From assembly GCA_964607485.1 (NCBI GenBank), contig CAZSKP010000039.1, positions 1 to 41,334 on the forward strand: a stretch of 41,334 nt of DNA, in the 5' to 3' direction. The notes beneath the pieces were generated by a model, which did not search any database, had not been told where the DNA came from, and saw only the letters and a program-made list of their open reading frames with translations. The position numbers and the translations under genes are program-made. Shown one piece after another: positions 3,878 to 39,728 of this stretch (its first letter is position 1; every line of letters starts with the position of its first letter). This DNA is from an uncultured bacterium. GTDB lineage: Bacteria; Abyssobacteria; SURF-5.

Positions 3878-3960
3878 TGGAGCGGTAGAGGCGATATTTC
3901 CTCCCTTGTCCTTCCGTATCTGCCCTCATCAAAACGACTGACGAATCGGGGGTGTAATCC

Positions 3961-5607: not shown

Positions 5608-5650
5608 CACCTCAGACCAAAGCGGTTGCTTTCCCTTATCTGTTAATTCC

Positions 5651-5672
5651 AACCCTGAACCCTGAACCTGAG
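5651..5672 (+). repeat. Heptamer tandem repeat AACCCTG
   Basis: AACCCTG AACCCTG AACCTG AG between the two genes. Confidence 0.6.
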
Positions 5673-5682
5673 CGAAACGAAC

Positions 5683-8303: not shown

Positions 8304-8319
8304 CTTCTCACTCCTTCTC

Positions 8320-9039: not shown

Positions 9040-9190
9040 CCATCACAGGTTTTCGTGAACCGACAAATATTCGACAATGCTTGCTTTGTCGTTCGCCTCC
9101 GACCCGGCAATTAAATGTTACACCAGAGCTGACAAAGCTTTCAACAAGAGAGCCTTCGCCGCTGCTGTACTTTTTCTCGCGGCTTCCCGT

Positions 9191-17670: not shown

Positions 17671-18368
17671 ATCGGCACGTTCTCTTTCTTTAGAGCGATG
17701 GTCACATCATCGCCGGATTTCGCCGGGAAATGCCAGCCCACTTCGGAGACCAGTTGAGTAGTCGGAAGAAGGACGATGTGGCCGAGTTTGGTGAACGGTA
17801 TCAGGACGAAAATCACGTTTGCGCTCATCACGTGAACGAACATGACGAGGTTGTAATCGAGCGGGTTCAGGGCGGGATGCATGCCCAGAAAGCCCGTGAC
17901 GAACGGTATTATCAGCAAGGGCGGAAGCAGGATGTCCTGCACCCGGCTGATTCGTCTCGATTGCCGATTCCCCAGCCGGCCCACCATCAGCCCCACCGCC
18001 GCCGCTATCGTCACGAGCGTCAGCGCATCGGCCACGACGTGCGGCAGCGAGGGCCAGCCTATCCCCAGTCCGCGCCTCCACAGCTCTATGTGCGCGAGCA
18101 GGAATATGGGTGTCAGGATCAGGCCCACGTGGAACGCCACCGAGGTGATGCTGTACGAAAGCCGGTTGCTCAGCTTCTTGGCGGGAAACAACCACTGCAG
18201 CGTGCTGACGAACACCGCTTTGTACGGGATGTTCCTGTCGCCGGCGCGGTAGATGGCGTGGACGATGCCGGCCACCGTTACGACCACGTGGCGAATGAGG
18301 CCCAGTACCATCAGAATGAAGGCGAATCGAAAGGCGGGGCCGCGCGCCCATTCTAACCACTGTTCCAT
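17667..18368 (-). CDS. NarI-like membrane cytochrome b (HmcE/TmcC/DsrM family)
   Basis: WARGP, AFHVGLILTPIFLLAHIELW, HVMSAN, IPFTKLGH; about five TM helices with four candidate heme b histidines. Confidence 0.88.
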   Translation of the reverse strand: MEQWLEWARGPAFRFAFILMVLGLIRHVVVTVAGIVHAIYRAGDRNIPYKAVFVSTLQWLFPAKKLSNRLSYSITSVAFHVGLILTPIFLLAHIELWRRGLGIGWPSLPHVVADALTLVTIAAAVGLMVGRLGNRQSRRISRVQDILLPPLLIIPFVTGFLGMHPALNPLDYNLVMFVHVMSANVIFVLIPFTKLGHIVLLPTTQLVSEVGWHFPAKSGDDVTIALKKENVPI

Positions 18369-18374
18369 CTGTCG

Positions 18375-19760
18375 TTACTCCCCTTCCTCTTCTTTCTCTC
18401 CATTGTTCGGACTTATCCCATATGCTTCCAAGTCGAGAGCCTTCAGCACGAGGTCGTGAAGGCCGACGACTTCGACGTCGTGCAGATCATTGTCCTCGCA
18501 CACCTCGCGCAGCTGCTTCTTGCAGTTGGCGCAGGGTGCCACGAGGTATTTTGCGCCCGTTCTCCGAATCTGGTCGGCCTTGGTGCGGCCGCCGGTGCCG
18601 GTGCGGAACGAGCGGATTTCGTCGATGGAAACCGTTCCGCCGCCACCGCCGCAGCAGATGTTCATGTGGCCGCATGGGACCATGTCCACGTAGTCCTTGC
18701 AGATGGCTTCGAGGATTTCGCGCGGCTGATTGATGATCCATTTCGAGCGGGCGATGTTGCAGGGGTCATGATACGTCACCCTCTCGGGAATGGCGCCCGA
18801 CTTGACTTTCAGCCTCCCATCGACCAACGCCTTGTGCGTGTATTCCATGATGTTGATGACCGGCGGGGCCTTCTTGCCCCCGCAGAAGGTTGGTATCCCC
18901 ACCTTGGCCGAACGCGAGGCGTGGCCGCACTCGCCGATGAGGACTTTCTTGGCCTTCAGGCGCTTCAGCTCTTCGGCTTCCTTCCGAACGATTCGGCACA
19001 GCATCGCGTCGCTGTAGAACAGCCCGTAGTTGATGCCGTCGTAGTACCCGGTTCCGATCGTCCATGAGCCGTTCGTCAGATGCATCACGGCGGCGTTGCC
19101 CATGAGCGTGTCGGGCTCGAGCAGGTAATCGCTGACAGCCGGGAAGAATACGTATTCGGCCCCTTCGACGTCCATCGGAAATTTCGCGGGCAGGTTGTAG
19201 TTCTCCACGAGTTCTTCCTCCAGGAACTCGCATGTGTCTTTCAGGGCTATCACCGGAATGGCCGAGGTGTTGCCCGTCTTGCCCTCAAGCTGCTCGCGAG
19301 TTGCGACCACGAGGGCCTTCGGCACGACTCCGATTTCCGCAAGAATCCAGCGGGCGAGATGGGTCATGAGCCCGTGGTCCACACCCATGGGGCAAGCGAA
19401 CTTGCACCTGCGGCAGGCCGTGCAGCGATACACGGCCTCGGCCATCTGGTCGATGTACTCGTCGGTCAACGTGAAGCTGTTGAACAGTCTCGACCGCACC
19501 ATTCCGTCTAGCGTGAAGTAGCGTTTGTACACCCTGAACAGCAGCTCGGAACGATAACAAGGGACATCCTTCGGGTCGCCGCTCTGGTCGAACACCTGAC
19601 ATACCCCAGCGCAGCGGGCGCACTTGGTGCTCGTGTGTCTGTACGTGTCGAGGACGAACCCGTAGTTGGAATGCTTGAGAATGGCTGAGAAGGCCTCGAG
19701 GAAACGTCGCGGCCTTTCCGCCTCCTCATACGGCTCCAGATAGTAGCTGTATTTTCCCAT
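18375..19760 (-). CDS. HdrD/DsrK/HmcF/TmcB-like cytoplasmic Fe-S protein with CCG domain
   Basis: CTACRRCKFACPMGVD, IGECGHA, VTYHDPCNIAR, ICCGGGGG, VAPCANC; start at ATG 19760 (RBS AGGA, downstream of the sigma54 promoter). Confidence 0.9.
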   Translation of the reverse strand: MGKYSYYLEPYEEAERPRRFLEAFSAILKHSNYGFVLDTYRHTSTKCARCAGVCQVFDQSGDPKDVPCYRSELLFRVYKRYFTLDGMVRSRLFNSFTLTDEYIDQMAEAVYRCTACRRCKFACPMGVDHGLMTHLARWILAEIGVVPKALVVATREQLEGKTGNTSAIPVIALKDTCEFLEEELVENYNLPAKFPMDVEGAEYVFFPAVSDYLLEPDTLMGNAAVMHLTNGSWTIGTGYYDGINYGLFYSDAMLCRIVRKEAEELKRLKAKKVLIGECGHASRSAKVGIPTFCGGKKAPPVINIMEYTHKALVDGRLKVKSGAIPERVTYHDPCNIARSKWIINQPREILEAICKDYVDMVPCGHMNICCGGGGGTVSIDEIRSFRTGTGGRTKADQIRRTGAKYLVAPCANCKKQLREVCEDNDLHDVEVVGLHDLVLKALDLEAYGISPNNGEKEEEGE

Positions 19761-19818
19761 GGCTTTTTCCTGGTGTTGCCGGGGTGGTATTAGAAAGGTT
19801 TCTGACAGCTTTAATATG

Positions 19819-19833
19819 GCAAGTTCCGCGCCA
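19819..19833 (-). promoter_or_regulatory. sigma54 (-24/-12) promoter of the redox-complex operon
   Basis: Minus strand TGGCGCGGAACTTGC versus consensus TGGCACG-N4-TTGC, exact GG-N10-GC spacing, about 60 nt upstream of the 19760 start, next to a divergent sigma54 activator gene. Confidence 0.85.
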
Positions 19834-20002
19834 TCATCGCATCGACTCGCCTTGTAGTGGAGAAAGAGGCAGCGAGAAGGGAACCCAGCATATGCCTTAA
19901 CATCCCATAACAAAACGAGTTACTGACCTCACGAAAATATTGGCTGGCGCCTCGAAAATGCATAGGAATGGGGGTGGACAAGGGCGGCGAAGACATAAGG
20001 CG

Positions 20003-23529: not shown

Positions 23530-24567
23530 TCACCTGCTGCCTTTTCGCATGTAGTCGGGGTCGCGCCTGAGCTTCTCGCGGGTCTCCTCGACCATCGCCT
23601 GAAACGCCAGGTGGTCGCTCGGCCAGGCGCGCTCTTCGAGCGGGCGCGTGCGCATCTTCTCTATCTCGCGCGCGAACTCCTCGGCCAGCGTCGTGCCGCT
23701 CTTGCTCGCCTCGGCGGGCGTGAAACATTCGCCGTAGATGTGGAGCGAGTCGGACTTGTCGCAGTACCTGCCGACCTTCACCTCCCTGCCCGTGGCCTCC
23801 GAGATTCTCTGCGCGATAGTTCTTTGCAAATCGGTCAGCGCATAGGCGTTCATGAACCACGCCCGGTACAAGTCGCGCGAGCGCCAGTCGGTGTTCATGT
23901 TGAGCACGGGCGCGCCCTCCTCATCCACGACGACGCGGCACCAGACGCGCTGCAGGCATGGCGGGTCGTGCGTGGCGGGGTCGGCGGTCGGCATCCACGT
24001 GACGGCCTGAGTCCTGCGGCTGTGAAACGCGGCTGCGGATTTTCTGACGATGTAGTCGATCTGGTCAAACGGCGGCAACTTGATGTCTGCGAGAGATTTT
24101 CCGATGTCGGCGGGAGTTTTTGCCTCGCCCGAATCCAGCAGCGCGCGCAGCCTGCTCGGCGAGAGTAGCATGCCGCGCGGGTCGTCGACGTCTTCCGTCG
24201 GCTGGTACGAGAACAGGCGGCCGTGGTAGGTGTACGTCCACAGGTCGGGGTTCGACGGGTCGACCCAGTGGTCGTGTATCCCCTCGACGACCTCCTGCCG
24301 ATACACCTCCAGCTCCTCGGGGCCGCCGGGGAAATTCTTGTGAATCCTCGGCTCGCCGAACGGCTCGAGCACCTCGATGAGGACGGTGGCGTCTTTGCTC
24401 GGCGGGTCGATGTACGCGCCCGCGGCGTCCCTCTTGTCGTACTCGGTCCTGATGTCGATGCCGTGGTCCCACACGGCGAGCACCGCCTTCTCCCACGCCT
24501 CGGGCAGAGTGCGCGCGGTTATGTGCAGAATGGGAATGTTGCCGCGATTCAGCCTTTTCGTCGTCAT
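23530..24567 (-). CDS. thyA: Thymidylate synthase-family protein, archaeal-type
   Basis: TLPEAWE, WTYTYHGRL, DQIDYIV, SRR.QAVTW, DPPCLQ (catalytic Cys), WRSRD..AW..NAYAL, GRY.D..DSLHIY. Confidence 0.75.
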   Translation of the reverse strand: MTTKRLNRGNIPILHITARTLPEAWEKAVLAVWDHGIDIRTEYDKRDAAGAYIDPPSKDATVLIEVLEPFGEPRIHKNFPGGPEELEVYRQEVVEGIHDHWVDPSNPDLWTYTYHGRLFSYQPTEDVDDPRGMLLSPSRLRALLDSGEAKTPADIGKSLADIKLPPFDQIDYIVRKSAAAFHSRRTQAVTWMPTADPATHDPPCLQRVWCRVVVDEEGAPVLNMNTDWRSRDLYRAWFMNAYALTDLQRTIAQRISEATGREVKVGRYCDKSDSLHIYGECFTPAEASKSGTTLAEEFAREIEKMRTRPLEERAWPSDHLAFQAMVEETREKLRRDPDYMRKGSR

Positions 24568-24585
24568 CTGTCAGTTTCCTATGCT

Positions 24586-25284
24586 TTATGATCGAAGTCG
24601 TGCCTGGCTGTCCCGAAGCAACTGCGATGATGGGCTCCAACCAAAACGCTGAAAAAACTCGACCGTAGGTTTAAGCGCGAGTTCCCGAGGCTCTGAGATC
24701 AATTCTCCCCTGCTAAATTCTTTGATGTAAGAGTATTTCGGCATCGATGTCCGACACACCTGACGCAGAAGGATTATGCCACTCGCATCCGCGCTGAGAA
24801 TACGATTCTGAATATTTTCAACACTTATCTCAATACGCATGCGTTCATCACCCGCATCACTGAGTGCTAGACGGGAAGCAAACTCAAAGATTTCAGTAAA
24901 CCGATATAGCGAATCAATTATTGGCACTTCGGTTCCATGCGTCCAACCTTCGTAAGGCCGCCATAACTTAGACTGATCAAGCCAATCGTTCGTTATACCA
25001 GATAAATGAATGAACTGACCACTCTGATAAAAGCGCCATATCTCAAGATTATGCTCCCACTCAATCTCTTGCCCTATCCAATCCATTTCCCTCTGAAATG
25101 GAGTATGGGAGTCCACATGGGGAAAATCCCAACCTCTTAACTCAACGGCTCTTTCCCGGATGATGTTCTCTAGATCAATGTAATTCTCGATTCGCCTTTC
25201 CACAAAGGCACAAGGACGAATGACTACTCGCCAATAGCCACGCGTCTGTATCTTCTCTAACAGAGTGCTTCGCGTCTCGTTCAT
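24586..25284 (-). CDS. Hypothetical protein coupled to the AlbA_2 gene
   Basis: 232-aa ORF in a low-GC tract; ATGA overlap with the upstream gene; motifs GYWRVVIRP, LRGWDFPH, EIWRFYQSGQF. Confidence 0.75.
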   Translation of the reverse strand: MNETRSTLLEKIQTRGYWRVVIRPCAFVERRIENYIDLENIIRERAVELRGWDFPHVDSHTPFQREMDWIGQEIEWEHNLEIWRFYQSGQFIHLSGITNDWLDQSKLWRPYEGWTHGTEVPIIDSLYRFTEIFEFASRLALSDAGDERMRIEISVENIQNRILSADASGIILLRQVCRTSMPKYSYIKEFSRGELISEPRELALKPTVEFFQRFGWSPSSQLLRDSQARLRS

Positions 25285-25904
25285 AGGTTACTCAATTGCC
25301 TATCGAAGAGAGTCTGATCGCTGACTGCGTCGGGAGCGACTAGGTTTATCCCCGCGGCGCGGGTCTGAGCCACAAATTTGCGAAGGCGTTTTTCGGCAGC
25401 TAGGTCAAGCAGGTCTCGCATTTCCGCATGCGATGGAATTACGGCCGTCTCAGCCTTGTGTCGGCTTCTCACATAGCAAGCCCCATTACGTAGGATGGTC
25501 TCTTTTCCACTAGTGTAATCCTTCTTGCACAAAATGGGAATGTCATCGAATTCTTTCACATCGATTACGATGTATTTCTTTCCCCCGTAGATGCGAACTT
25601 CCACAGTGAACTCTACTGGAGGATCGGCGTAATTGTTTAACCTGTCAGCAACATCATCCTTATTCCATGTAGCAATATCTTTCTCATTCAGGCCAATTGG
25701 GGTTAGTTTCTTATTCTTGTCTTCGATCCCAATTACAACAAGACCACCGTCACGACGGTTTGCCATACCCATCATGGCGCGGCTGACTCTTGCGAAAAAG
25801 CACTTGTCGTCACGCTTGCCTGGCCCCTTCACCTCCACGTCGGTACGCTCGCTACTGTAATGCACCAATTCGTTGATTATCTTTTCAAACTCTTGGTCAG
25901 TCAT
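25281..25904 (-). CDS. AlbA_2 (Schlafen nuclease-like) domain protein
   Basis: E-RTDV-E-V-K (ExxxxExK), MANRRDGGLVVIGIED, YIVIDVKE...P, YVR. Confidence 0.85.
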   Translation of the reverse strand: MTDQEFEKIINELVHYSSERTDVEVKGPGKRDDKCFFARVSRAMMGMANRRDGGLVVIGIEDKNKKLTPIGLNEKDIATWNKDDVADRLNNYADPPVEFTVEVRIYGGKKYIVIDVKEFDDIPILCKKDYTSGKETILRNGACYVRSRHKAETAVIPSHAEMRDLLDLAAEKRLRKFVAQTRAAGINLVAPDAVSDQTLFDRQLSNL

Positions 25905-25991
25905 CTCTCGGTGCCCTGTGGTCTACCGGAAGATCACATTTTCTGTTTAAGCATGAAATCTGCGTCGCGTTAAGCAAATTCTTCCTCAATG

Positions 25992-26020
25992 ACTATACCG
26001 CACAGGGCAAATTTGTTCAA
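25992..26020 (-). promoter_or_regulatory. Putative sigma70 promoter of the AlbA_2 cassette
   Basis: Minus strand TTGAAC, 17 nt, TATAGT; overlapped by a CAGGGC...GCCCTG inverted repeat. Confidence 0.6.
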
Positions 26021-26030
26021 GCCCTGATTT

Positions 26031-26332
26031 GGGAAAGGGTCAAAAGGGAAAAAGGTCAAAAGGTGAAGAGGGGGAACCGGTTTACGGTTTTGGGTTGGAA
26101 TAATTTGTTCGCGAAGAACAGCAAAAAGCCTCATCCTTTCGTATCTGCGAAAATCTGCGTAATCTGCGGATTCCCATGTTCGTGTAATTTGTGTAATTCG
26201 TGGTGAGATTCTTCGCTTCGCTCAGAATGACCGTGTGGTGGAATTCGTGATGGGATTCTTCGCGGAGTTTATCCTGAGCGCATGCAAAGGGCTCAGGATG
26301 ACGTTTTTGTGCTCTTCGTGTCCTTCGTGGAC
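26031..26332. repeat. Mosaic of short tandem and palindromic extragenic repeats
   Basis: Period-8 purine repeat (26031-26070); ATCTGCG x3 (26143-26168); TTYGTGTAA-like x3 (26179-26205); GAGATTCTTCGCTTCGCTCAGAATGAC (26205-26231); longer variant with ATCCTGAGC/GCTCAGGAT stem (26252-26302); TTYGTGNNC x3 (26306-26332). Confidence 0.8.
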
Positions 26333-26440
26333 GAAATGTTTTGCGAGTTTGCGGTGGGTTCGTGATAGAATAGGTGCGCACGCAACCACCCCGTTGCGGG
26401 GCTTGCCGCTCAATGTCTCCCTCATCCTTGGAGGTGAAAT

Positions 26441-27454
26441 GTGAATACGCTCGTGACCGGCGGCACCGGCTTCGTCGGAACTCATCTCGTGAGAAAGCTG
26501 ACCGAGCGCGGCGACAAGGTGCGCTGTCTGGTTCGGAAGACAAGTGACGTCGCCTCGTTGAAACGGATGGGCGTGGAGCTCGCCGAGGGCGACATCACGA
26601 TGTACGAGTCGCTGCTCGACGCCGCCCGCGGTGCGGAGGTCATCTATCATGCCGCCGCGCTCGTCGAGGTCGGCGGCGCGTCGCGGAGCGAGTTCTACCT
26701 GGTGAACGTCGAGGGCACGCGTAACGTGCTGAAGGCGTGCGAGACGGCTGGCGTCGGCAGGCTGGTTCACGTGAGCACGCAGTCGGTCACGTTCGATTTC
26801 ACCGACAAGTACGACTCGACCGAGGACGCTCCCTTTCCCTCTCGCTACAAGGACAACTACTCCGAGACGAAGGCGCTGGCGGAGAGGGAAGTGATGGGCG
26901 CGGCAAAGCAGGGCCGCGTGAGCGCGTGCGCAGTGAGGCCGACGTGGGTATGGGGGCCGGGCGACATGACGATACTGCCGATCATCGCAAAGCTGGCGCG
27001 CCGAAAACAGTTGTTCTTGATAAACGGAGGCCGGGCGGAAACGTCGACGAGCTACGTGGAGAACGTGTGCGACTGTCTCATCCTTGCCGCCCAGCGCGAA
27101 AACGTTTCGGGCGAGGCGTTCCTCGTCACCGACGACGAGCGCATCACCGCCCGCGAATTCATCGAGAAGATGGCCGACGCGGCCGGGTTCGCGAGACCGA
27201 AGCTGTCGATACCTTACGGCCTCGCCTATGCGTCGGCGGCCGTCGCCGAAACACTCCATGCGATTTCCGGGTCGAGGAAGCCGCCGCTGATGACACGGTA
27301 CGGAATAGCGCTCACGGGCCGAAACCTCACGTTCAGTTGCGAGAAGGCCAAGCGGGCGCTTGGATACCGCCCGGAAGTGAACATAGACGAAGGCATGCGC
27401 AGGCTCTCGGCATGGGTGAGCGAAATCGGCGGCATCAAGACGCTGACCGCGTGA
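26441..27454 (+). CDS. NAD-dependent epimerase/dehydratase, extended SDR (3-beta-hydroxysteroid dehydrogenase-like)
   Basis: VTGGTGFVG, YHAAA, VNVEGTRNVL, VHVST, YSETK (YxxxK), RPTWVWGPGD; GTG start with RBS GGAGGTG. Confidence 0.92.
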   Translation: MNTLVTGGTGFVGTHLVRKLTERGDKVRCLVRKTSDVASLKRMGVELAEGDITMYESLLDAARGAEVIYHAAALVEVGGASRSEFYLVNVEGTRNVLKACETAGVGRLVHVSTQSVTFDFTDKYDSTEDAPFPSRYKDNYSETKALAEREVMGAAKQGRVSACAVRPTWVWGPGDMTILPIIAKLARRKQLFLINGGRAETSTSYVENVCDCLILAAQRENVSGEAFLVTDDERITAREFIEKMADAAGFARPKLSIPYGLAYASAAVAETLHAISGSRKPPLMTRYGIALTGRNLTFSCEKAKRALGYRPEVNIDEGMRRLSAWVSEIGGIKTLTA

Positions 27455-27473
27455 GAAGAGCGTCCGAGAGCGC

Positions 27474-27504
27474 TTGACAATGTTATCACCCATGTGTTTA
27501 GAAT
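27474..27504 (+). promoter_or_regulatory. Possible sigma70 promoter of the MMPL gene
   Basis: TTGACA, 19 nt, TAGAAT (spacer is long). Confidence 0.45.
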
Positions 27505-27581
27505 ACGTCGTCGCCGCACACCCCAGAGCGCCGGCCTAGGGCTTAGGCATGGCCTGAAATCGTTTTCCCTGGCGAGCATTG

Positions 27582-29978
27582 ATGAAGAGATTCTTTCATC
27601 TCATAACGGGGTCCCCCCGACTTACCATCCTTATCACCCTTCTGCTCACCATCTTCTTTGGGCTGCAACTGCCGAAGCTGCGGCTTGAATCCGACGTTGA
27701 TGTGTATCTTCCGGACGAGCATCCTTCCATAAAATATGAGCATTTAATCCAAGACATCTTCAATTATCAGGAGTCGATGGCGATTGCCATTTTCAACGAG
27801 GGGCCCGACGGCATTTTCAATCCCCAGACGCTGGGCAAAATCAAGAGGCTGACGGAGGAGGTAGCGCGGGTGCGCTACGTGATAGCGCAGCGCGAAGAGG
27901 ATATCAAGAGCATCAGCACGATGGACAACATCGTCGGGACCGAGGAGGGCGTCGAGGTTATTCCTCTGATGGAAGAGGTTCCCACGACCCCGCAGGAGGT
28001 AGAGCAACTCAAGGAGAACCTGTACGGCAACGAGATGTTTGTCGGGTGGCTGGTGTCGGAGGACGGGACCGCGGCCGTCATTCTCGCCAAGATCGAGGAC
28101 GGCCAGGACAAGCAATCATACGCTTACAATGAAATCAAGAAGCTCGTCGAACGCGAGCAGGGCGGGGGCGACCGCATATACATAGCGGGTCAGCCGGTTC
28201 TCGAGGCGACCTTCATCGATTACATGGTCAGGAACATGGAGGTGATGCTCCCCATCGTCTTCGCCGTCATCGTGCTGCTCCTCTATTTCACCTTCGGCAG
28301 CCTGCGGGGCGTCGTGCTTCCGCTCGTGGTCGTATCGGCCAGCGTCACGTGGAGCATGGGAATCATGAGCTTGGTGGACGTGCCGATTTACGACATGACC
28401 ACCATGACGCCCGTTATCCTTATCGCGATCGGTTGCGCATACGGAATCCATATCCTGAACCGTTACTACGAAGAGGCAAAAGACGAGACCGGCAGGGAAA
28501 AACGGGCAATCGTGCTTCAGAGCATGCTCACCATATGGCAGCCGGTGGTGATGAGCTCGCTCACCACGGCGGTGGGCTTTGCCTCGCTCTGCACCTCCAG
28601 CCTCGTGCCCGTGCGCAGTTTCGGAATCTTCACCGGAGTGGGCATCATCTGCGCGCTGCTGTTCTCCCTGACGTTCATCCCCGCCGGCCTGATGCTGGTG
28701 AAGGTTCCCGATTTCACCGAAGCGAAACGCCGCAGTCTCGACGTAGGTCGCATTGTCCAGAAGTACACCGACCTTGCGCTGGGTTCCATGGGACGCTGGG
28801 TGTATCGTCATCGCGTGGCGATTTGTGTGTTCTCCGCAGTGCTGGCGCTCGTCGCTGGGGTCGGGTTTACCAAGCTGCGCGCCGACGACAGTTGGGTGGA
28901 AATGTTCCCGCATGACAGCGATGTCTATATTTCCAGCAAGCTGATTAGCGACAAAATGAACGGCACCGTTTCGATGAACGTGGTGGTGGAGGGCGATGAG
29001 CCCGACACCATCAAGTCGCCTTCCCTCCTGAAGAAGATGGTGGAGCTTCAGGAACTGGCTGAAGAAACGGAACAGGTGGGCGGCACAATCTCGATTGCCG
29101 ACTACGTAAAGCGCATGAACAAGGTGATGAACGCGGACAAGGAGGAGTTCAACACGATCCCCGACAGCCGGGACGCGGTCGCTCAATACCTCTTGTTGTA
29201 CTCGCTGTCGGGAGACCCGGACGACTTCGACGAGGTCGTCGATTACGACTATCGTCAGGCCAACATCACCGTCATGCTGAAGGACGACCACACAGGCGGT
29301 GTGAAAAAACTGGCCAACCGTCTCCGCCGGTATATCAAGGAACACTTTGCGGATGAACCGGCGAAGTTAAACCTCACCGGCTACGCTTACGTCACAGAGG
29401 TGGTCATAGACCTCGCCGTTCGCGGGATGCTGGGCAGCATTTTCCTCTCCATTTTGGTCATCTACATCATGACCGTACTCATGTTCCGTTCTTTTACGGG
29501 CGGGATTTATAACGTAATCCCGATCGTGATGGCGTTACTGCTCAACTTCGGGCTGATGGGCGCGTTGGGCGTGACAATAGGGTTCGCCAACTCATCCGCG
29601 TTCGCGGTGGCGATGGGGATCGGGGTGGATTACGCGATCCATCTTGTGTTCAAGTTTCAGCGCGAGGTCGCCGAAAGCTCCGACCTGGAGGAGGTAACCG
29701 CCATCACCCTGATGACCAGCGGGAAAGCGATCTTTTTCAACGCCGTGGTTGTCACCGCCGGTTTCCTGGTGCTGCTGGCATCCAACTTCACCGGCCACCG
29801 GATAATGGGGCGGTTGCTCTCTTTGAGCATGGTCACGAGCTTCCTCGGCTCGGTGACGCTGCTACCGGCCGCGCTGAGCCTGTTCAAGCCTGCCTTCATC
29901 TTCCCCCAAAAAGAAGCGGGCGCGGAGGACATCAGTACCGCCGAACCGGTTGAGGTTGAGCATCTCCCGCCCAGGTAG
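27582..29978 (+). CDS. MMPL/RND-family transporter
   Basis: Two repeats of TM, large loop, five TMs; SLTTAVGFASL, GIGVDYAIH, SGKAIFFNA. Confidence 0.93.
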   Translation: MKRFFHLITGSPRLTILITLLLTIFFGLQLPKLRLESDVDVYLPDEHPSIKYEHLIQDIFNYQESMAIAIFNEGPDGIFNPQTLGKIKRLTEEVARVRYVIAQREEDIKSISTMDNIVGTEEGVEVIPLMEEVPTTPQEVEQLKENLYGNEMFVGWLVSEDGTAAVILAKIEDGQDKQSYAYNEIKKLVEREQGGGDRIYIAGQPVLEATFIDYMVRNMEVMLPIVFAVIVLLLYFTFGSLRGVVLPLVVVSASVTWSMGIMSLVDVPIYDMTTMTPVILIAIGCAYGIHILNRYYEEAKDETGREKRAIVLQSMLTIWQPVVMSSLTTAVGFASLCTSSLVPVRSFGIFTGVGIICALLFSLTFIPAGLMLVKVPDFTEAKRRSLDVGRIVQKYTDLALGSMGRWVYRHRVAICVFSAVLALVAGVGFTKLRADDSWVEMFPHDSDVYISSKLISDKMNGTVSMNVVVEGDEPDTIKSPSLLKKMVELQELAEETEQVGGTISIADYVKRMNKVMNADKEEFNTIPDSRDAVAQYLLLYSLSGDPDDFDEVVDYDYRQANITVMLKDDHTGGVKKLANRLRRYIKEHFADEPAKLNLTGYAYVTEVVIDLAVRGMLGSIFLSILVIYIMTVLMFRSFTGGIYNVIPIVMALLLNFGLMGALGVTIGFANSSAFAVAMGIGVDYAIHLVFKFQREVAESSDLEEVTAITLMTSGKAIFFNAVVVTAGFLVLLASNFTGHRIMGRLLSLSMVTSFLGSVTLLPAALSLFKPAFIFPQKEAGAEDISTAEPVEVEHLPPR

Positions 29979-32309: not shown

Positions 32310-32900
32310 TCACGCCGTCTTCTTCACTCCGTGGAACAGCTCGCTTCCCGCGCCGGGATAGACCTTGTGCTCCTTCGGGGGCGTGCGTCGCGCTACTGCC
32401 GGCCATTTGTCTCGCTGCGGCTCCGAACCCTCGTTGGCGGTCTCCGAGGGAACTGCATCGGCCATGCTCGGTTTCTTGCGGACGTCGATACCTTCAACGT
32501 TGTGGCTGAACTCGATTGGGATGCCGTTTGGGTCGAAGGCATATATCGAGTGGATGAAGCCGTGGTCGATCACATCGGAAACCTCGAACCCCGCCGCCGA
32601 GAGTGTATCTTTGAGTTCCCAAAGGTCGTCTTCCGTTTCCACGCCAAAGGAGACATGGTCAAACACAAAGGGGCCGGAGACCGGTTCCCCATGATCCTTT
32701 TCCTTCACCGGTCTTATGTCGGGCCATTCGAAAAAAGCTATTAAATCATACGGGGAAATCTCGAAGAAGTAGTGTCTGTATCCCGGTCTTCCCAGCCCTG
32801 CAACGAGCCTCATGCCGAGTAAGTCGCGCCAGAAACGAATGGTCTTATCCATATCGCCCGTAGCCATCGCCAAATGGTTGACTCCGTTGTACCTGATCAT
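32310..32900 (-). CDS. VOC/glyoxalase-family protein
   Basis: GVNHLAMAT.DMDKTIRFWRDLLGM, IAFFEW, FDHVSF, DHGFIHSIYAFDPNGIPIEF; start at ATG 32900 behind GAGGAG. Confidence 0.9.
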   Translation of the reverse strand: MIRYNGVNHLAMATGDMDKTIRFWRDLLGMRLVAGLGRPGYRHYFFEISPYDLIAFFEWPDIRPVKEKDHGEPVSGPFVFDHVSFGVETEDDLWELKDTLSAAGFEVSDVIDHGFIHSIYAFDPNGIPIEFSHNVEGIDVRKKPSMADAVPSETANEGSEPQRDKWPAVARRTPPKEHKVYPGAGSELFHGVKKTA

Positions 32901-33114
32901 AAGATACGCTCCTCGGCCCTTTCTTCGGCCTTCAATCTCGCATTGATTAACTGACGCCGGCTCGTGAACATATTCACTTGCATTATGAATGATTTTCCGA
33001 CTTCCCGCTATTCCGGAATGCACTTGAGTTCAGCGGCTGAAGTCGCCTTTACTTTTTTGAGCTTGGTATTCTATTATTGTATGCCGTACGGAGTTGTTCA
33101 ATCTTGGGTGGCAG

Positions 33115-36100
33115 ATGAGCTATGTGGATAAGTATGAGGAACGGCCAGTGAGAACCGGCACCGACAGAATACCTGCCGGGTCTTATTGTGTTCATGCCTT
33201 GGTCAGCGCACAGGCGGAGCGGAATCCTAATGCGATTGCCATCCTTGCGCCCGGAAGGAGTGCTTTGACATATGGGCGTTTGTTCGACCAGGTGTCGCAA
33301 TCCGCCGGCATACTCAGGTCTTTCGGGATAGAGCGCAATGACCGCGTGGCAATTGTGCTCCCCAACGGCCCTGAAATGGCGGTTGCCTTCCTAACGGTGG
33401 CCTCATGCGCAGCCAGCGCGCCGCTGAACCCGGCATATCGGGCCGCAGAATTCGACTTCTACCTTTCGGATTTGAAAGCCAAAGCCTTGATTGTCCAATC
33501 GGGAATCGATTCTCCGGCGAGGACGGTCGCGCAGGAACGGGGGATTCTCATAATCGAGTTGTCACCGAATGTGGACGCCGAGGCGGGCATTTTCTCACTG
33601 GCCGGCGGCGTAAGTTGGTCAGCCGCGAAAGTAGATTTTGCCCCACCGGACGATGTCGCACTGGTGCTCCACACCTCCGGGACGACGTCGCGGCCCAAAT
33701 TGGTTCCGCTGACACAAACGAATATCTGCACATTGGCTCACAATAACAGAATTCTCCTTAAGTTGGACGAGAAGGATAGATGTCTCAACGTAATGCCGCT
33801 GTTTCATATCCATGGATTGTCAGTGCTTCTGGCGACAATTGCCGCGGGTGGAAGTGTCGCATGCACGCCGGGCTTTTATGCCCCAAGATTTTTCGAATGG
33901 ATGGAAAACTTTCGACCCACGTGGTATTCGGCGGTGCCGACCATGCATCAGGCGATCTTGAGCCGTGCCGCCGAGAATCTCGAGACTATCGGGAAATGTC
34001 CGTTGCGGTTTGTTCGTTCCGCCTCAGCTCCTCTGCCGCCGAAAACGATGGCGGAACTGGAGGCGGTATTCGAAGCGCCTGCGATTGAGGCTTACGGGAT
34101 GACGGAGGCCTCCCATCAGATAGCGAGTAATCCGCTGCCGCCCGGCCAACGGAAAACCGGTTCGGTCGGTCTTGCAGCAGGCGCGCAAGTGGCCGTCATG
34201 AACGAAGCGGGCAACCTCGTGCCGGCAGGAGAGGTCGGTGAGCTCGTAATTCGTGGTAAGAGTGTGATGAAGGGCTACGAAAACAACCCTGAGGCCAATA
34301 GGAACGCCTTCACCAATGGCTGGTTCAGAACAGGCGACCAGGGCTATATGGACTCCGAAGGCTATATTTTTATCACGGGTCGATTGAAGGAAGTCATCAA
34401 TCGAGGCGGCGAGAAAATTTCGCCGCGCGAGGTGGATGAAGTCCTGATGGAGCATCCGGCTATTGACCAGGCGGTCACTTTCGCGCTGCCCGATCCCAGG
34501 CTTGGCGAGGACGTCGGGGCCGCCGTGGTACTAAGGGAAAACGCCTCGGTTACGGAGAGGGAAATACGCGAGTTCGCCGCACAGCGGCTGGCCGACTTCA
34601 AAGTTCCACGTCGGGTTGTGGTGCTGGATGAAATACCGAAAGGCCCTACGGGTAAATTGCAGCGAATCGGGCTGACCGAGACATTGGGACTGGAAAGCAT
34701 CGCAGAGGGGCCGACAGGGGCGGGCGCCCCTTATGCGCCTCCTCGGAGTGCGACCGAGAAAAAGCTTGCGGCAATGTGGGCCGATGTTCTCGGCCTGAAT
34801 CGCGTGGGCATCCACGATGAGTTCCTTCATCTGGGCGGAGATTCGATGCTTGCCACTCTTCTCGTCTCTCGGGTGCGCGAGGCGTTTCGGGCGGAGTTAT
34901 CGCTTCTCAGTTTCTTCGAAGAGGCTTTCACTGTGGCAAGGATGTGCGAATGGCTGGCAAACGCCGATGTTGCGCAGCCGCCGGTCGCGGTTCCCCTGGT
35001 GCCGACTGAGCGCGACCAGGAATTCCTACTTTCCTTTGCCCAGGAGCGTCAGTGGTTTATTCAAGAGTTAGACCCAGGCAATTGCGCATATAATTCCATC
35101 GCATGCATTCGCTTTGAAGGTCCGTTGAGCGTTATGGCTTTGGAGAACAGTCTCGGCGAAATAATACGGCGGCACGAAGCGCTGCGCACAACTTATCCAA
35201 CGATGGATGGAAGACCCATTCAAAAGATCGAAGAAGCGGGCTCCATCCGGCTGCGCCCCATAGACCTCGCCATGTTTCCCGGGGCTGAGAGGGAAGCGCG
35301 AGCGATGCAGCTCATGACCGACGAGGCGCGGCGGCCATTTAACCTATCCAAGGATATGCCGATTCGCCCGTTCCTGCTGAAGGTGAATGGGGAAGAGCAC
35401 AATCTGCTGCTCACTATTCATCATATTGCGTATGACGGTTGGTCGGCCGGAGTTCTCTTGAAGGAACTCATGACGTTGTATGAGGCTTTTGCAGAGGCAA
35501 AGCCGTCCCCGCTTGCGGATCTGCCGATTCAATACGTTGACTTCGCCACGTGGCAACGTCAGCGCATAGACAAAGAAAAGACCGAGAGACAACTCTCATA
35601 CTGGGAGCGGGTCCTCGGCGGCGGTTTGCCTGTTTTGGACATGCCAACCGATCATCGACGACCGGCGAGGCAGAGTGGTCGCGGGCGGCGGTTGAACTTC
35701 TCTCTGCCAGTCGAACTCTCCCGCTCGGTCAAGGAGCTGTGTCGGAATGAGGGGAGCACCCTCTTTATGGTTCTCTTGGCCGCGTATCAGTGTCTTCTCC
35801 ACCGCTATTCCGGACAGACAGACATTATTGTCGGCTCTCCCATTTCCGGACGAACGCACGTTCAGACTGAAGCGATGATAGGGATGTTCATTAACACGCT
35901 GCCTCTTCGCACAGACCTTTCCGGCGATCCAACTTTCCGTGAGCTGATAAGACGGGTTCGCAAGACGGCTCTCGAGGCCTATGAGAATCAGGATGTTCCC
36001 TTTCAGGAAATCGTCGCGCTCATGAAGCCCGAACGAGTCCTCAACCATCTCCCTTTGTTCCAGGTGATGTTTGTGCTCCAGAACGCGCCCATGCCTCACC

Positions 36101-38907
36101 TTGAGCTGCCGGGCCTCAAGCTAAGCCTTATTGACATAGACAAACATGCGTCGATCGCCGACCTTTCCTTACACCTATGGGACAGGCCGGAGGGTCTCGG
36201 CGGTTTTTTCGAGTACGACACGGAACTATTCGACGAAGGAACCATCGAGAGGATGACGTGGCATTTTCAAGTATTGCTGGGGAGCATTGTTGACGGACCC
36301 GAGCGGCGGGTGTCGGAACTGCAGATGTGTGATGACGCAGAGCGTCACCGGCTATTGTGTGAATGGAATGATACCCAGGCGAACTATTCGCGAGATTCCA
36401 CCATTCATGGCTTGTTCGAAGCTCAGGTTGAGCAAACACCGGACTCGCTCGCCGTGGTATTTGATGAGGAGAAGCTGACCTACCGTGAATTGAACGACCG
36501 GGCAAACAGGCTGGCTCATTTCCTGCAATCTCGCGGAGTCTGCAGGGGGACGATTGTAGGTATTTGCATGGAGCGCTCGGCGGATATGGTCGTGGCGTTG
36601 TTGGCGACGCTCAAGGCGGGAGGGGCATATCTGCCCCTGGACCCAACTTACCCTGTTGAGCGGCTGGCCGTCATCCTGGATGAGTCGAAGTCGCCGTTGA
36701 TACTCACGCACAAGAGCCTCGTCGATTTCCTTCCGGCGGAGGAACAAACGATTGTCTGCCTTGATGCGGATTCGGGCGTTATCGAAAAGGAAAGCATTGA
36801 AAACCCATCCAGTGAAGTATCGGCCGAGGATCTGGCCTATGTGATGTTCACATCAGGGTCCACCGGCATGCCGAAGGGCGTTTCGGTGCCTCACAGGGCT
36901 GTCGTCAGGCTGGTGAGGAACACCAACTATATTGAGCTGGGGCCGAACGACCGGATCGCACATGCCTCGAACTGCGCATTCGACGCCGCCACGTTCGAGA
37001 TTTGGGGTGCCCTCCTCTGCGGGGCTCGGATTGTGGGAATACCGAGGGACGTGACACTTTCTCCGAGGGACTTTGCGGCGCGGCTCCAAGACCAGGGCGT
37101 CACGACCCTGTTCTTGACGACCGCGCTGTTCAACCACATGGCCGCGGAAACTCCCGACGCGTTCAAATCCTTGAAGCATCTCCTTTTTGGGGGCGAGGCC
37201 GTTGAACCCAAATGGGTCAAGAAGGTGCTCGACGGCTGTCCTCCCGAACGATTGGTCCACGTGTACGGGCCGACTGAAAACACCACATTCTCCACGTGGT
37301 ATCTTGTGGAGCATGTCGCCGACGGGGCCGGCACCATCCCCATCGGCAGGCCGATATCGAACACATGCGCTTACGTGCTGGACGGAAAGATGCAGCCTGT
37401 GCCCGTTGGCCTTACGGGCGAACTGTATCTCGGAGGCGACGGTCTGGCGATGAGATACTTGAATCGTCCGGATCTTACCGCCGAGAGATTCGTTTCCGAT
37501 CCGTTTGACGGCATGCTCGGATGTCGCCTGTACAAGACCGGAGACCGGGTGCGATATTTGCCGGATGGCAACATCGAATTCATAGGCCGCCTCGACGACC
37601 AGGTAAAGATGCGCGGTTTTCGCATCGAGCCTGAAGAGGTCGAGATCATGCTGCGACAAATTCCCGCCGTCCGCGAAACGGTCGTATTGGCGCGAGAAGA
37701 TGAACCCGGCAACCGTTACCTTGCGGCGTATATCATACCCGAAGCCGGCCAAGCGCCAAGTGTAGCTGAAATCCGAAACTTCTTGAAACAAAAGCTGCCC
37801 GATTACATGGTGCCATCCGCTTTTGTAATGATGGAGGCCTTCCCGCTGACGCCCAATGGCAAGGTTGATCGTCGCTCTCTTCCGGTGCCTGAGCGCGGCT
37901 GTCTTGAACTTGTGGCGGAACATGTGGAGCCGAGAGACGCGGTCGAACTGCGGCTTGTGAAGCTTTGGGAATGCCTGTTGGATCTTCGTCCCATCGGGAT
38001 GAACGACAACTTCTTCGAGTTGGGTGGACACTCGCTCTTGGCCGCGCGCCTGTTTTCTCAAATCGAGAAGATGACCGGCAAGGCCTTGCCTCTGGGCACA
38101 CTTATTGAAAGGCCGACAGTCGAGCAACTTGCCGATGTGCTCCGAAAGGAAGGCTGGTCGCCCCAGTGGGAATCATTGGTGCCAATCCAGCCTCGTGGGA
38201 GCAAGAAGCCATTGTTCTGCGTGCACCCGCCGAGCGGCAACGTTTTTGGTTATACCGACCTGGCGCGCCATTTGGGAAATGAGCAACCGTTATTCGGGCT
38301 CCAGGCGCTTGGCCTGGACGGGAAACGGCCGCCTTTCACCCGTGTCGAAGACATGGCCGCTTTCTATCTTCAGGAAATACAATCCATCGACCCCAAGGGC
38401 CCGTATCTTCTGTGTGGAAGGTGTTCGATAGGGGGATTGGTCGCCTACGAAATGGCCCAACAACTTTTGAAGCAGGGTGAAGAGGTGGCGTTGTTGGCGA
38501 TGATAGATGTCGAGAATCCCGTGGCGTTAATGGACCCGGAGAGAAACCCATACCGTCACAAATCGCTGATCCATTACCCGCGCCGTAATATCAAGCGCTT
38601 AATCTCTTACGTACTCAGCGATCCCCAAACTCGCCGGTTCAATGAGGCGCTTGCCGCCAACATTCAAGCGAAACGTACGTATGTCCCAAAGGTCTACCCC
38701 GGCCGGATAACGTATTTCTTCAGCGAGCAATTCAGCCGGAACAAGTCCCGGCGCTTTCGCCCTGAAGTGCCCGGGGGATGGCAACAACTGGCGGGAGGCG
38801 GTTTGGAGATACATATCGTTCCCGGCGGCCATTTAACCATGCTGGCTGAACCACATGTTCGGGTGATGGCTGAAAAACTAAAAGCCTGTATGAATAGGGC
38901 AACGTAA
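33115..38907 (+). CDS. Non-ribosomal peptide synthetase A(acyl-CoA-ligase type)-T-C-A-T-TE (start 33094 or 33115)
   Basis: A1 HTSGTTSRPK, MPLFHIHGL, YGMTEASHQ, PKGPTGK; T1 LGGDSML; C LSFAQERQW, HHIAYDGWS; A2 FTSGSTGMPKG, YGPTE, YKTGD, GFRIE, NGKVDR; T2 LGGHSLL; TE LFCVHP, GPY.L.G, PGGHLTML. Confidence 0.95.
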   Translation: MSYVDKYEERPVRTGTDRIPAGSYCVHALVSAQAERNPNAIAILAPGRSALTYGRLFDQVSQSAGILRSFGIERNDRVAIVLPNGPEMAVAFLTVASCAASAPLNPAYRAAEFDFYLSDLKAKALIVQSGIDSPARTVAQERGILIIELSPNVDAEAGIFSLAGGVSWSAAKVDFAPPDDVALVLHTSGTTSRPKLVPLTQTNICTLAHNNRILLKLDEKDRCLNVMPLFHIHGLSVLLATIAAGGSVACTPGFYAPRFFEWMENFRPTWYSAVPTMHQAILSRAAENLETIGKCPLRFVRSASAPLPPKTMAELEAVFEAPAIEAYGMTEASHQIASNPLPPGQRKTGSVGLAAGAQVAVMNEAGNLVPAGEVGELVIRGKSVMKGYENNPEANRNAFTNGWFRTGDQGYMDSEGYIFITGRLKEVINRGGEKISPREVDEVLMEHPAIDQAVTFALPDPRLGEDVGAAVVLRENASVTEREIREFAAQRLADFKVPRRVVVLDEIPKGPTGKLQRIGLTETLGLESIAEGPTGAGAPYAPPRSATEKKLAAMWADVLGLNRVGIHDEFLHLGGDSMLATLLVSRVREAFRAELSLLSFFEEAFTVARMCEWLANADVAQPPVAVPLVPTERDQEFLLSFAQERQWFIQELDPGNCAYNSIACIRFEGPLSVMALENSLGEIIRRHEALRTTYPTMDGRPIQKIEEAGSIRLRPIDLAMFPGAEREARAMQLMTDEARRPFNLSKDMPIRPFLLKVNGEEHNLLLTIHHIAYDGWSAGVLLKELMTLYEAFAEAKPSPLADLPIQYVDFATWQRQRIDKEKTERQLSYWERVLGGGLPVLDMPTDHRRPARQSGRGRRLNFSLPVELSRSVKELCRNEGSTLFMVLLAAYQCLLHRYSGQTDIIVGSPISGRTHVQTEAMIGMFINTLPLRTDLSGDPTFRELIRRVRKTALEAYENQDVPFQEIVALMKPERVLNHLPLFQVMFVLQNAPMPHLELPGLKLSLIDIDKHASIADLSLHLWDRPEGLGGFFEYDTELFDEGTIERMTWHFQVLLGSIVDGPERRVSELQMCDDAERHRLLCEWNDTQANYSRDSTIHGLFEAQVEQTPDSLAVVFDEEKLTYRELNDRANRLAHFLQSRGVCRGTIVGICMERSADMVVALLATLKAGGAYLPLDPTYPVERLAVILDESKSPLILTHKSLVDFLPAEEQTIVCLDADSGVIEKESIENPSSEVSAEDLAYVMFTSGSTGMPKGVSVPHRAVVRLVRNTNYIELGPNDRIAHASNCAFDAATFEIWGALLCGARIVGIPRDVTLSPRDFAARLQDQGVTTLFLTTALFNHMAAETPDAFKSLKHLLFGGEAVEPKWVKKVLDGCPPERLVHVYGPTENTTFSTWYLVEHVADGAGTIPIGRPISNTCAYVLDGKMQPVPVGLTGELYLGGDGLAMRYLNRPDLTAERFVSDPFDGMLGCRLYKTGDRVRYLPDGNIEFIGRLDDQVKMRGFRIEPEEVEIMLRQIPAVRETVVLAREDEPGNRYLAAYIIPEAGQAPSVAEIRNFLKQKLPDYMVPSAFVMMEAFPLTPNGKVDRRSLPVPERGCLELVAEHVEPRDAVELRLVKLWECLLDLRPIGMNDNFFELGGHSLLAARLFSQIEKMTGKALPLGTLIERPTVEQLADVLRKEGWSPQWESLVPIQPRGSKKPLFCVHPPSGNVFGYTDLARHLGNEQPLFGLQALGLDGKRPPFTRVEDMAAFYLQEIQSIDPKGPYLLCGRCSIGGLVAYEMAQQLLKQGEEVALLAMIDVENPVALMDPERNPYRHKSLIHYPRRNIKRLISYVLSDPQTRRFNEALAANIQAKRTYVPKVYPGRITYFFSEQFSRNKSRRFRPEVPGGWQQLAGGGLEIHIVPGGHLTMLAEPHVRVMAEKLKACMNRAT

Positions 38908-38909
38908 AG

Positions 38910-39728
38910 ATGCACGAGAACGCAAATGAATCCGTTCGTCAGTCGTCTTTGTTGACTCCAACGCCCGCATTGGGTATGGATGAAATCCACGTGCTCCAGG
39001 CCCGTTTGGATACGGATGGACTGTATCTTGAGATGTACGAGCAGGTTCTTTCCGAAGATGAATTGGAGAGAGCAAACCGTTTTTATTTTTGGAAAGACCG
39101 GAGGGACTTTATTACGGCCCGCTGGTTTTTGCGAACTGTTCTTGCCTGTTACCTGAAGACAGACGCGTCTGGACTTCAATTCTCTTACAATGCTCACGGA
39201 AAGCCCGCGCTCGCCGGCAAATTGTCGAGTCAGGAGCTCTGCTTCAATTTGTCTCATTCCGGAGGACTTGTTCTTCTTGCCGTGGCGCGAGGGCGGCATG
39301 TCGGAATCGACGTGGAGCTTGTCAGCTCTCATCCGGCTGACAAAGGCATTATCGAGCAGTCCTGTTCTCCCAGCGAAGCTTCAATCTTGTATTCACTCCC
39401 GCGCCATATGCAATCAGAAGCCTTCTTCCGCTGCTGGACCAGAAAGGAAGCGTATCTGAAAGCGCGGGGGCAGGGATTGGCTTCGTGTCCGAAGCAGTTC
39501 AGCGTTCCAATGGATTCTGCCGGACCGACTTCTCACGTTGCAACCATAAGAGCTCGAAACGGAGTTCCTCCTTGGTCGATATGGCACTTGGCTCTGGCGC
39601 CCGGATATATAGGCGCCCTGGCCTCGGAAGGAAGCGCATGCGGCGTCAACCTTTGCTCCCTATCCTCAACCTCTTTTTGCGGAATCAGCGCCTCACCAGC
39701 CCCAACCAACACTATCATTAAGAAGTAA
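38910..39728 (+). CDS. Sfp-type 4'-phosphopantetheinyl transferase
   Basis: LS.DE.ERA.RF, HGKP, FNLSHSG, VGIDVE, WTRKEAYLKARGQG; starts 2 nt after the NRPS stop. Confidence 0.93.
   Translation: MHENANESVRQSSLLTPTPALGMDEIHVLQARLDTDGLYLEMYEQVLSEDELERANRFYFWKDRRDFITARWFLRTVLACYLKTDASGLQFSYNAHGKPALAGKLSSQELCFNLSHSGGLVLLAVARGRHVGIDVELVSSHPADKGIIEQSCSPSEASILYSLPRHMQSEAFFRCWTRKEAYLKARGQGLASCPKQFSVPMDSAGPTSHVATIRARNGVPPWSIWHLALAPGYIGALASEGSACGVNLCSLSSTSFCGISASPAPTNTIIKK

Follow-up and report, generated by a model that had tools for sequence, protein, structure and literature searches.

A two-module nonribosomal peptide synthetase with a predicted oxalate-activating starter domain in an uncultured SURF-5 bacterium

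A contig from an uncultured bacterium of the Abyssobacteria (lineage SURF-5; assembly GCA_964607485.1, contig CAZSKP010000039.1), analyzed here over positions 1 to 41,334 (the window), encodes a nonribosomal peptide synthetase (NRPS) whose first adenylation domain resembles oxalyl-coenzyme A (CoA) synthetases. The NRPS gene occupies an uninterrupted open frame of ∼5.8 kb on the forward strand, from a TTG codon at 33094 to the TAA stop at 38905-38907. Because TTG 33094, ATG 33115, and GTG 33148 share one frame, the true start is one of these three codons. A GAGGA box lies 7 nt before GTG 33148, and this start agrees with the 1919-residue gene call in the database (P0003). The conserved part of the first adenylation domain is located downstream of all three candidates. 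Residue numbers of the first adenylation domain and the thioesterase follow P0001, the NRPS protein of the window.

Pfam models identify two AMP-binding domains, two PP-binding domains, a Condensation domain (residues 642-1088), and a Thioesterase domain (residues 1706-1925) in the protein. The domain order is A1-T1-C-A2-T2-TE, where A is adenylation, T carrier, C condensation, and TE thioesterase, which is a complete two-module NRPS of the type I modular class: the A, T, C, and TE domains are co-linear, an HHxxxDG motif and two GGxS motifs are present, the TE possesses its nucleophile and His, and the P-loops of both A domains are intact (Table 1). The original prediction, made from the letters of the DNA, had given this architecture and quoted six peptide motifs, each of which was found exactly once. 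It had also reported a phosphopantetheinyl transferase (PPTase) immediately downstream, and the corresponding open reading frame (ORF) does begin at 38910, 2 nt past the NRPS stop. This ORF carries ACPS and AASDHPPT_N, the two domains of Sfp-type PPTases, and its best NCBIfam match is HetI (173 bits, under the cut-off of 370). The GC content of the operon (0.55 to 0.57) resembles that of its surroundings. The frame open across its full length, the intact core motifs of all six domains, and the tightly coupled PPTase gene make it very improbable that the NRPS gene is a silent or decaying remnant without a product, even though no regulator, supply gene, or exporter in the window could be demonstrably tied to it and promoter-like sites around the operon were no commoner than in shuffled sequence (6 versus 5.3 ± 2.1). 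A terminator scan around the operon was likewise not above its shuffled controls (13 versus 10.8 ± 3.0).

Table 1. Coordinates of the NRPS operon, its domains and active-site motifs, and the divergent neighboring gene
Feature	Coordinates	Strand	Evidence
NRPS gene, A1-T1-C-A2-T2-TE	33094..38907	+	Pfam, motif search
A1, oxalyl-CoA-synthetase-type adenylation domain (predicted), P0001 residues 26-535	33169..34698	+	Pfam, structure-database alignment
A1 P-loop HTSGTTSRPK	33670-33699	+	motif search
A1 pocket His238-Ile239-His240 (AtAAE3 214-216)	within 33802-33819	+	alignment
A1 pocket Ala310-Ser311 (AtAAE3 288-289)	within 34015-34035	+	alignment
A1 pocket Gly335-Met336 (AtAAE3 313-314) and His341 (319)	within 34093-34116	+	alignment
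A1 pocket Lys521 (AtAAE3 500)	within 34648-34665	+	alignment
T1 carrier domain	34765..34989	+	phosphopantetheine Ser in GGDSM, 34834-34848
Condensation domain	35017..36357	+	intact HHIAYDG, 35419-35439
A2, amino-acid adenylation domain, code DAFFLGVTFK	36403..37893	+	Pfam, code extraction
T2 carrier domain	37936..38163	+	Ser in GGHSL, 38023-38037
Thioesterase domain	38191..38904	+	nucleophile site GRCSIGG, 38416-38436; His in GGHLTM, 38824-38841
Sfp/HetI-type 4'-phosphopantetheinyl transferase	38910..39728	+	ACPS + AASDHPPT_N (Pfam)
VOC/glyoxalase-family gene, divergent neighbor of the NRPS gene	32310..33023	-	family match

To place A1 among characterized enzymes, the domain was compared with all solved structures, and the four best matches were all oxalate--CoA ligases. 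The top match was plant AtAAE3 (436.7 bits, E = 1e-129), and the others were Lathyrus LsOCS (414.4 bits) and two entries of yeast Pcs60 (383.3 and 276.5 bits). The first matches within the ANL superfamily that do not act on oxalate were FadD13 at 223 bits and malonyl-CoA synthetase at 217.5 bits. A1 possesses the marks of the ANL superfamily, namely, the P-loop, the A5, A7, and A8 motifs, and the A10 lysine, and is covered by the Pfam models AMP-binding and AMP-binding_C.

The oxalate pocket of AtAAE3, as described in the LsOCS paper, consists of Val215-His216, Cys288-Ser289, Ala313-Met314, His319, and Lys500; of these residues, Ser289, His319, and Lys500 contact oxalate, and Ser289 and His319 are conserved in oxalyl-CoA synthetases alone (PMC8905533). 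In the same source, the preference of LsOCS for oxalate was 61-fold against glyoxylate and about 10^4-fold against malonate, and its activity was undetectable with succinate, glycolate, and lactate (PMC8905533). When A1 was aligned to AtAAE3, the pocket read Ile-His, Ala-Ser, Gly-Met, His, and Lys. All three oxalate contacts are kept (Ser289 as Ser311, His319 as His341, and Lys500 as Lys521), as are His216 and Met314 of the pocket wall; the remaining wall residues are replaced (Val215 by Ile, Cys288 by Ala, and Ala313 by Gly). The query signature over AtAAE3 positions 214, 215, 216, 288, 289, 313, 314, 319, and 500 is H-I-H-A-S-G-M-H-K. Judged by its scores against solved relatives and by the kept contacts, A1 is assigned to the oxalyl-CoA synthetase type, in agreement with the family membership originally predicted. 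A1 would function like members of this family, yet it is not the usual CoA ligase, being fused in frame to T1-C-A2-T2-TE.

Free-standing bacterial relatives of A1 place the pocket in a metabolic context. A scan of one genome per species yielded 79 loci, 21 of which encode an A1-type domain with 57 to 61% identity to the query. In 18 of the 21, the domain is a free-standing ligase of ∼500 residues; 16 are from Methylobacterium/Methylorubrum, and the others are from a near-identical "Proteobacteria" metagenome-assembled genome (MAG), one Beijerinckiaceae, and one Kofleriaceae. At every one of the 18 loci, the free-standing ligase adjoins a homologue of the 2-dehydropantoate-2-reductase-like (PanE2-like) gene of locus L007, and at 12 a homologue of the oxalate/formate antiporter is encoded within a few kilobases. 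On TIGR04259, with its cut-off of 335, the antiporters score 620.6 and 602.3 bits. Two reports describe PanE2 of M. extorquens as a characterized oxalyl-CoA reductase (PMC8411744, PMC9485241). On a Rhodobacteraceae plasmid, the gene of a ligase 56.5% identical to A1 also overlaps a 2-dehydropantoate-2-reductase gene. From this gene context, we infer that the free-standing ligase of the PanE2/antiporter operons is an oxalyl-CoA synthetase. These ligases resemble A1 (56 to 61% identity) but lack a carrier domain and are found in a catabolic context. All 21 locus homologues share the signature H-I-H-S-S-G-M-H-K, from which the query differs at the Cys288 position alone. Since Ile at position 215 and Gly at position 313 are common to all 21, including those in oxalate-assimilation contexts, they represent the bacterial norm.

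The predicted oxalyl-type starter is not unique to the query but is shared by at least 227 listed database proteins with A-T, A-T-TE, or multi-module NRPS architectures. A search with the full-length protein listed 119 matches other than the query, and 107 of these possess an A1-type domain at ≥51% identity that begins within the first 60 residues in 102 cases; among the remainder, nine align only at <28% identity and three gave no match at an E value of 1e-20. When A1 alone was searched, the listed matches were 120 proteins of 298 to 949 residues with 63 to 74% identity. Precomputed Pfam annotation includes a PP-binding domain in 118 of these 120 short relatives, and two were named "oxalate---CoA ligase" by an automatic source. 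The term "stand-alone" in the original prediction therefore applies to the NRPS locus within the window and does not extend to the protein, which belongs to a large family.

The architectures of 239 listed proteins were mapped with the six query domains as probes and are approximate, as epimerization domains would score as C. The most frequent were A1-T (81 proteins), A1-T-C-A2-T-C (49), A1-T-TE (37), and three-module forms (34). The query order, A1-T-C-A2-T-TE, was found in 11 proteins, 7 of which are query-sized at 1914 to 1981 residues (P0049, P0054, P0055, P0105 from Brocadiia, P0107, P0110, and P0117). The family as a whole thus includes A-T, A-T-TE, and A-T-acetyltransferase-like proteins together with two- to three-module NRPSs, from Nitrospirota, Desulfobacterota-like MAGs, Brocadiia, Candidatus Electrothrix, Candidatus Uabimicrobium, Poribacteria, and cyanobacteria. 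The short relatives (P0123-P0242) are the closest to A1 and include five A1-T proteins of 792 residues with hexapeptide-repeat (acetyltransferase-like) domains; their sources include cyanobacteria, Caldithrix, Poribacteria, and Candidatus Thiosymbion.

A FastTree phylogeny was built from 237 A1-type domains, and two unrelated ANL domains encoded in the window served as its root; AAE3 and Pcs60 are not among its leaves. The pattern H-[IV]-H-[SCA]-S-G-M-H-K is kept in 178 of the 237 domains. One clade of 48 leaves (support 1.0), all of them A1-T-C-A2-T-C proteins of about 2.1 thousand residues, does not have this canonical pattern, and its members replace His319 with Ser, Gly, Ala, Asn, Ile, or Cys. 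This clade (in the range P0052-P0122) pairs the altered pocket with A2 codes that lack the usual first-position Asp, such as GDQIFGLDDK in 21 proteins and VDWWVSL-DK in 7, and its members probably use another starter and a second unit that is not an alpha-amino acid. The query A1 keeps the pattern and falls outside this clade, in the company of A1-T-TE and A1-T proteins. The 18 free-standing ligases group together in a single clade (support 1.0).

The gene neighborhoods of carrier-fused relatives were read for three loci (L001, L015, and L018), and all three fit oxalyl-thioester chemistry. At the first (L001, Thermodesulfovibrionales), an A1-T gene is followed by a gene of the isocitrate lyase/phosphoenolpyruvate (ICL/PEP)-mutase family (3313-4206) and then by a C-domain NRPS gene; at the second (L015, Nitrospiraceae), a gene of the same family (3025-3864) comes directly after an A1-T-TE gene. 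The two ICL/PEP-mutase-family proteins are 56% identical to each other, and both have a CGH motif. Among solved proteins, the L015 copy is most similar to carboxyvinyl-carboxyphosphonate phosphorylmutase, the petal death protein, and methylisocitrate lyases; oxaloacetate acetylhydrolase, which also belongs to the ICL/PEP-mutase family, scores 81 bits. These proteins may be oxaloacetate hydrolases that supply oxalate. At the third locus (L018, a deltaproteobacterial MAG), the end of the A1-T gene overlaps the gene of a thiamine diphosphate (ThDP) enzyme (2274-3827). Among solved proteins, this enzyme scores 283 to 225 bits against 2-hydroxyacyl-CoA lyases and oxalyl-CoA decarboxylases versus ∼157 bits against acetolactate synthases, which suggests that carrier-bound oxalyl might be decarboxylated or enter C1 chemistry.

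The best solved relatives of the C domain are the C domains of Txo2, Txo1, and TycC, and we classify it from these matches as an ordinary elongation-type domain. A special starter C domain was considered and rejected, as the best solved relatives are all of the ordinary elongation kind. With the A4, A5, and A10 core motifs as anchors and the GrsA numbering scheme, the A2 code was extracted as DAFFLGVTFK, identical to the one originally read by eye. In a study of the Planktothrix cyanopeptolin synthetase, the same code belongs to OciB-A5 and OciC-A7, which incorporate Ile, and Val in minor variants (PMC2533009). A second study reports it for Ile-incorporating domains of the suomilide, aeruginosin, and pseudospumigin synthetases (PMC13122637). 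A2 therefore likely loads Ile with Val as a likely minor substrate, as had been predicted. A comparison with the Val-activating LgrA domain was dropped because its aligned pocket residues are quite different and thus uninformative. Among the 98 relatives examined, 46 combine a canonical-pocket A1 with a downstream A2, and these 46 have 40 different A2 codes; the cap would therefore be combined with many amino acids. The query code recurs in P0008 and P0105, and two canonical-pocket relatives have DFWNIGMVHK, which is assigned to Thr in the cyanopeptolin table cited above (PMC2533009).

Taken together, these domains suggest a short assembly line that caps isoleucine with oxalate, and we consider N-oxalyl-isoleucine the most likely product, with moderate confidence. 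The PPTase, which would be co-transcribed, would convert T1 and T2 to their holo forms. A1 would act as a recruited loading domain that adenylates oxalate and passes the oxalyl group to the phosphopantetheine of T1 rather than to CoA; because A1 is fused in frame to carrier and condensation domains, phosphopantetheine should be the acceptor. A2 would place L-isoleucine (valine probably being minor) on T2, and in the C domain the amino group of isoleucine would attack oxalyl-S-T1 to yield N-oxalyl-Ile-S-T2. Hydrolysis of this thioester by the TE would release free N-oxalyl-L-isoleucine (C8H13NO5, computed monoisotopic mass 203.079). More tentatively, oxalate may be a building block of thiotemplate synthesis in general, with a large, carrier-fused family of oxalate-activating enzymes in largely uncultured bacteria making oxalyl-capped amino acids and peptides, of which the window enzyme would make N-oxalyl-isoleucine. 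The original interpretation withstood every computational test made here that was able to refute it.

Several observations weigh against oxalate as the starter or against free N-oxalyl-isoleucine as the product. No oxalate ligase model of NCBIfam matched A1, and the best NCBIfam model was NF004511, the FadD7-family fatty-acid--CoA ligase (573.8 bits), with a long-chain subfamily model at 572.7 bits. Read literally, these names would make A1 a fatty-acid or medium-chain acyl ligase and the product an N-acyl (lipo) amino acid. However, the FadD7 score is under the model cut-off of 650, and the Methylorubrum homologue from an oxalate operon itself scores 445.2 bits on this model. Solved fatty-acyl ligases reach about half of the oxalate-ligase score (223 versus 437 bits), the residues that close the AtAAE3 pocket (His319, Met314, and Ser289) are kept, and free-standing homologues are found in oxalate operons and not in beta-oxidation contexts. 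On score and pocket, the fatty-acid interpretation was rejected as scarcely credible.

The identity of the small acid is less constrained. At the Cys288 position of AtAAE3, the query has Ala, where most relatives have Ser or Cys, and the exact query signature occurs in only two other listed proteins; the Ala could enlarge the pocket slightly. In addition, the canonical-pocket A1 of three relatives (P0004, P0040, and P0048) is immediately preceded by an intact C domain (HHxxxDG), an arrangement that oxalate loading does not explain because an oxalyl group has no nucleophile. Both observations would suit a different small acid (glyoxylate, malonate, oxamate, glycolate, or pyruvate), the upstream C domain fitting one that bears a nucleophile; a different N-(small acyl)-isoleucine would then be made. 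The replacement of His319 and its neighbors in the 48-member clade further indicates that specificity shifts within the family, and LsOCS accepts glyoxylate at 1/61 of its oxalate efficiency (PMC8905533). We nevertheless regard another small acid as unlikely: Ser289 and His319, which are described as specific to oxalyl-CoA synthetases, are kept with the rest of the bacterial pocket pattern, position 288 is Ser, Cys, or Ala within the canonical group itself, and relatives adjoin genes of oxalyl-thioester metabolism. The lack of detectable LsOCS activity on glycolate, lactate, and succinate points in the same direction (PMC8905533).

The supporting context also has limits. The 18 free-standing loci represent approximately four lineages, mostly Methylobacterium/Methylorubrum, and are not 18 independent cases. 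Support for the deeper branches of the A1 tree is 0.0 to 0.27, so no conclusion is drawn from its branching order. The window contains no gene for the formation or transport of oxalate, and tblastn queries taken from the loci of the relatives (PEP-mutase-like, ThDP, PanE2-like, and antiporter proteins) matched nothing in it.

The release step is a further point at which the product could differ. The TE nucleophile site of the query, GRCSIGG, is one residue longer than the G-x-S/C-x-G-G of its relatives, and because of this one-residue insertion either Cys1777 or Ser1778 could be the nucleophile. When 65 TE domains of the family were aligned, most had Ser or Cys in the nucleophile column and some had Gly or Ala. 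This unusual site, the alternation of Ser and Cys in the family, the oxalyl-CoA decarboxylase/2-hydroxyacyl-CoA lyase-type ThDP enzyme after the A1-T gene of L018, and the VOC-family gene that adjoins the NRPS gene are compatible with an enzyme that loads oxalate and does not release free N-oxalyl-Ile, either because the TE transfers the product to another nucleophile or because the oxalyl thioester is processed in trans (e.g., decarboxylated to formyl) before or after condensation. Such a deviation appears improbable, since the architecture is complete for simple hydrolytic release and no ThDP, reductase, or transferase gene is located near the NRPS gene in the window.

Several known systems share parts of the proposed N-oxalyl-isoleucine pathway. 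AtAAE3, LsOCS, and Pcs60 (PDB 5ie0-5ie3, 6qjz, and 8aff) have the same ANL fold and core motifs and identical oxalate-contacting Ser, His, and Lys residues and outscore all other solved relatives twofold; unlike A1, which is fused to carrier and condensation domains, they are free-standing and make oxalyl-CoA for oxalate breakdown. NRPS and hybrid assembly lines with CoA-ligase-like or fatty-acyl-AMP-ligase loading domains also use an ANL enzyme that is not specific to amino acids, together with a carrier, to prime an acyl cap. To our knowledge, the starters of these lines are fatty or aromatic acids. Fum10 of fumonisin biosynthesis belongs to the same ligase subfamily as AAE3. In the Fum10/Fum14 system, a small polycarboxylic acid is activated by an acyl-CoA-synthetase-type enzyme and then attached by a condensation-domain protein, but the proteins are fungal and separate, the acid is tricarballylic acid, and the linkage is an ester to a polyketide (PMC7711896). 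The plant pathway to beta-N-oxalyl-L-alpha,beta-diaminopropionic acid (beta-ODAP, dencichine) likewise yields an N-oxalyl amino acid after AAE3-type activation of oxalate (PMC9485241, PMC8905533). In that pathway, the amide is formed from released oxalyl-CoA by a separate BAHD acyltransferase, whereas here the C domain of a thiotemplate would form it on carrier proteins.

No description of an oxalyl-primed NRPS was found in the full-text literature searched, consistent with the original statement that no characterized NRPS is known to have an oxalate starter; most subscription journals are outside the scope of that search, and a published example is possible. A paper on lactacystin was rejected as a precedent for the starter, as oxalyl-CoA appears only in its reference list. 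To judge from domains and motifs, the enzyme is an ordinary two-module NRPS, the starter of which is well predicted and widespread. If A1 loads oxalate, this starter unit is one for which the literature searched holds no description, and the pathway would be an enzymatic route to N-oxalyl amino acids distinct from the oxalyl-CoA/BAHD route of plants. N-oxalyl-isoleucine would also be a natural analogue of the 2-oxoglutarate mimic N-oxalylglycine. N-oxalyl amino acids bind metals well and are classic competitive inhibitors of 2-oxoglutarate-dependent oxygenases, so that their synthesis on a bacterial assembly line would suggest a signaling, inhibitory, or metal-binding role. The system is simple: two genes and two inexpensive substrates would give one small predicted product. 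Because the starter is present in at least 227 listed proteins with some 40 second-module codes, one assay would annotate the whole family.

The surroundings of the operon differ from the original account, which had stated that no tailoring or export gene is adjacent. The divergent neighbor of the NRPS gene is of the VOC/glyoxalase family (Table 1), and an HAE3/MMPL-type RND transporter gene (27579..29978) is located 3.1 kb upstream. A DUF5619 gene and a class-2 photolyase gene are also found upstream, and a gene for a TPR protein is found downstream. No link between the NRPS and the VOC, DUF5619, photolyase, RND, or TPR neighbors in the window could be made.

Several other loci were noted in the remainder of the window. 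A second AMP-binding ligase, unrelated to A1 (164.9 bits on the FadD7 model), adjoins a homologue of the 2-hydroxyglutaryl-CoA dehydratase D-component at 3961-6933 on the forward strand. On the reverse strand, 7073-10252 looks like an exopolysaccharide locus, with a polysaccharide deacetylase bearing DUF3473, a GT2 glycosyltransferase, and a GNAT-domain protein. A membrane redox module at 14897-19913 (reverse strand) combines an NrfD-like protein fused to multihaem cytochrome c3/c7 domains with 4Fe-4S dicluster, nitrate-reductase-gamma-like, and CCG-domain Fe-S proteins and resembles Hmc/Dsr-type complexes of sulfate reducers. The segment at 23530-27493, with a GC content of 0.52 to 0.53 versus about 0.58, may be an acquired island; of its ORFs, one is weakly thymidylate-synthase-like, one has a Schlafen/AlbA_2 domain, and two lack a family match. 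The stretch of lowest GC content in the window (0.49) encodes a right-handed beta-helix protein (1851-3608, reverse strand).

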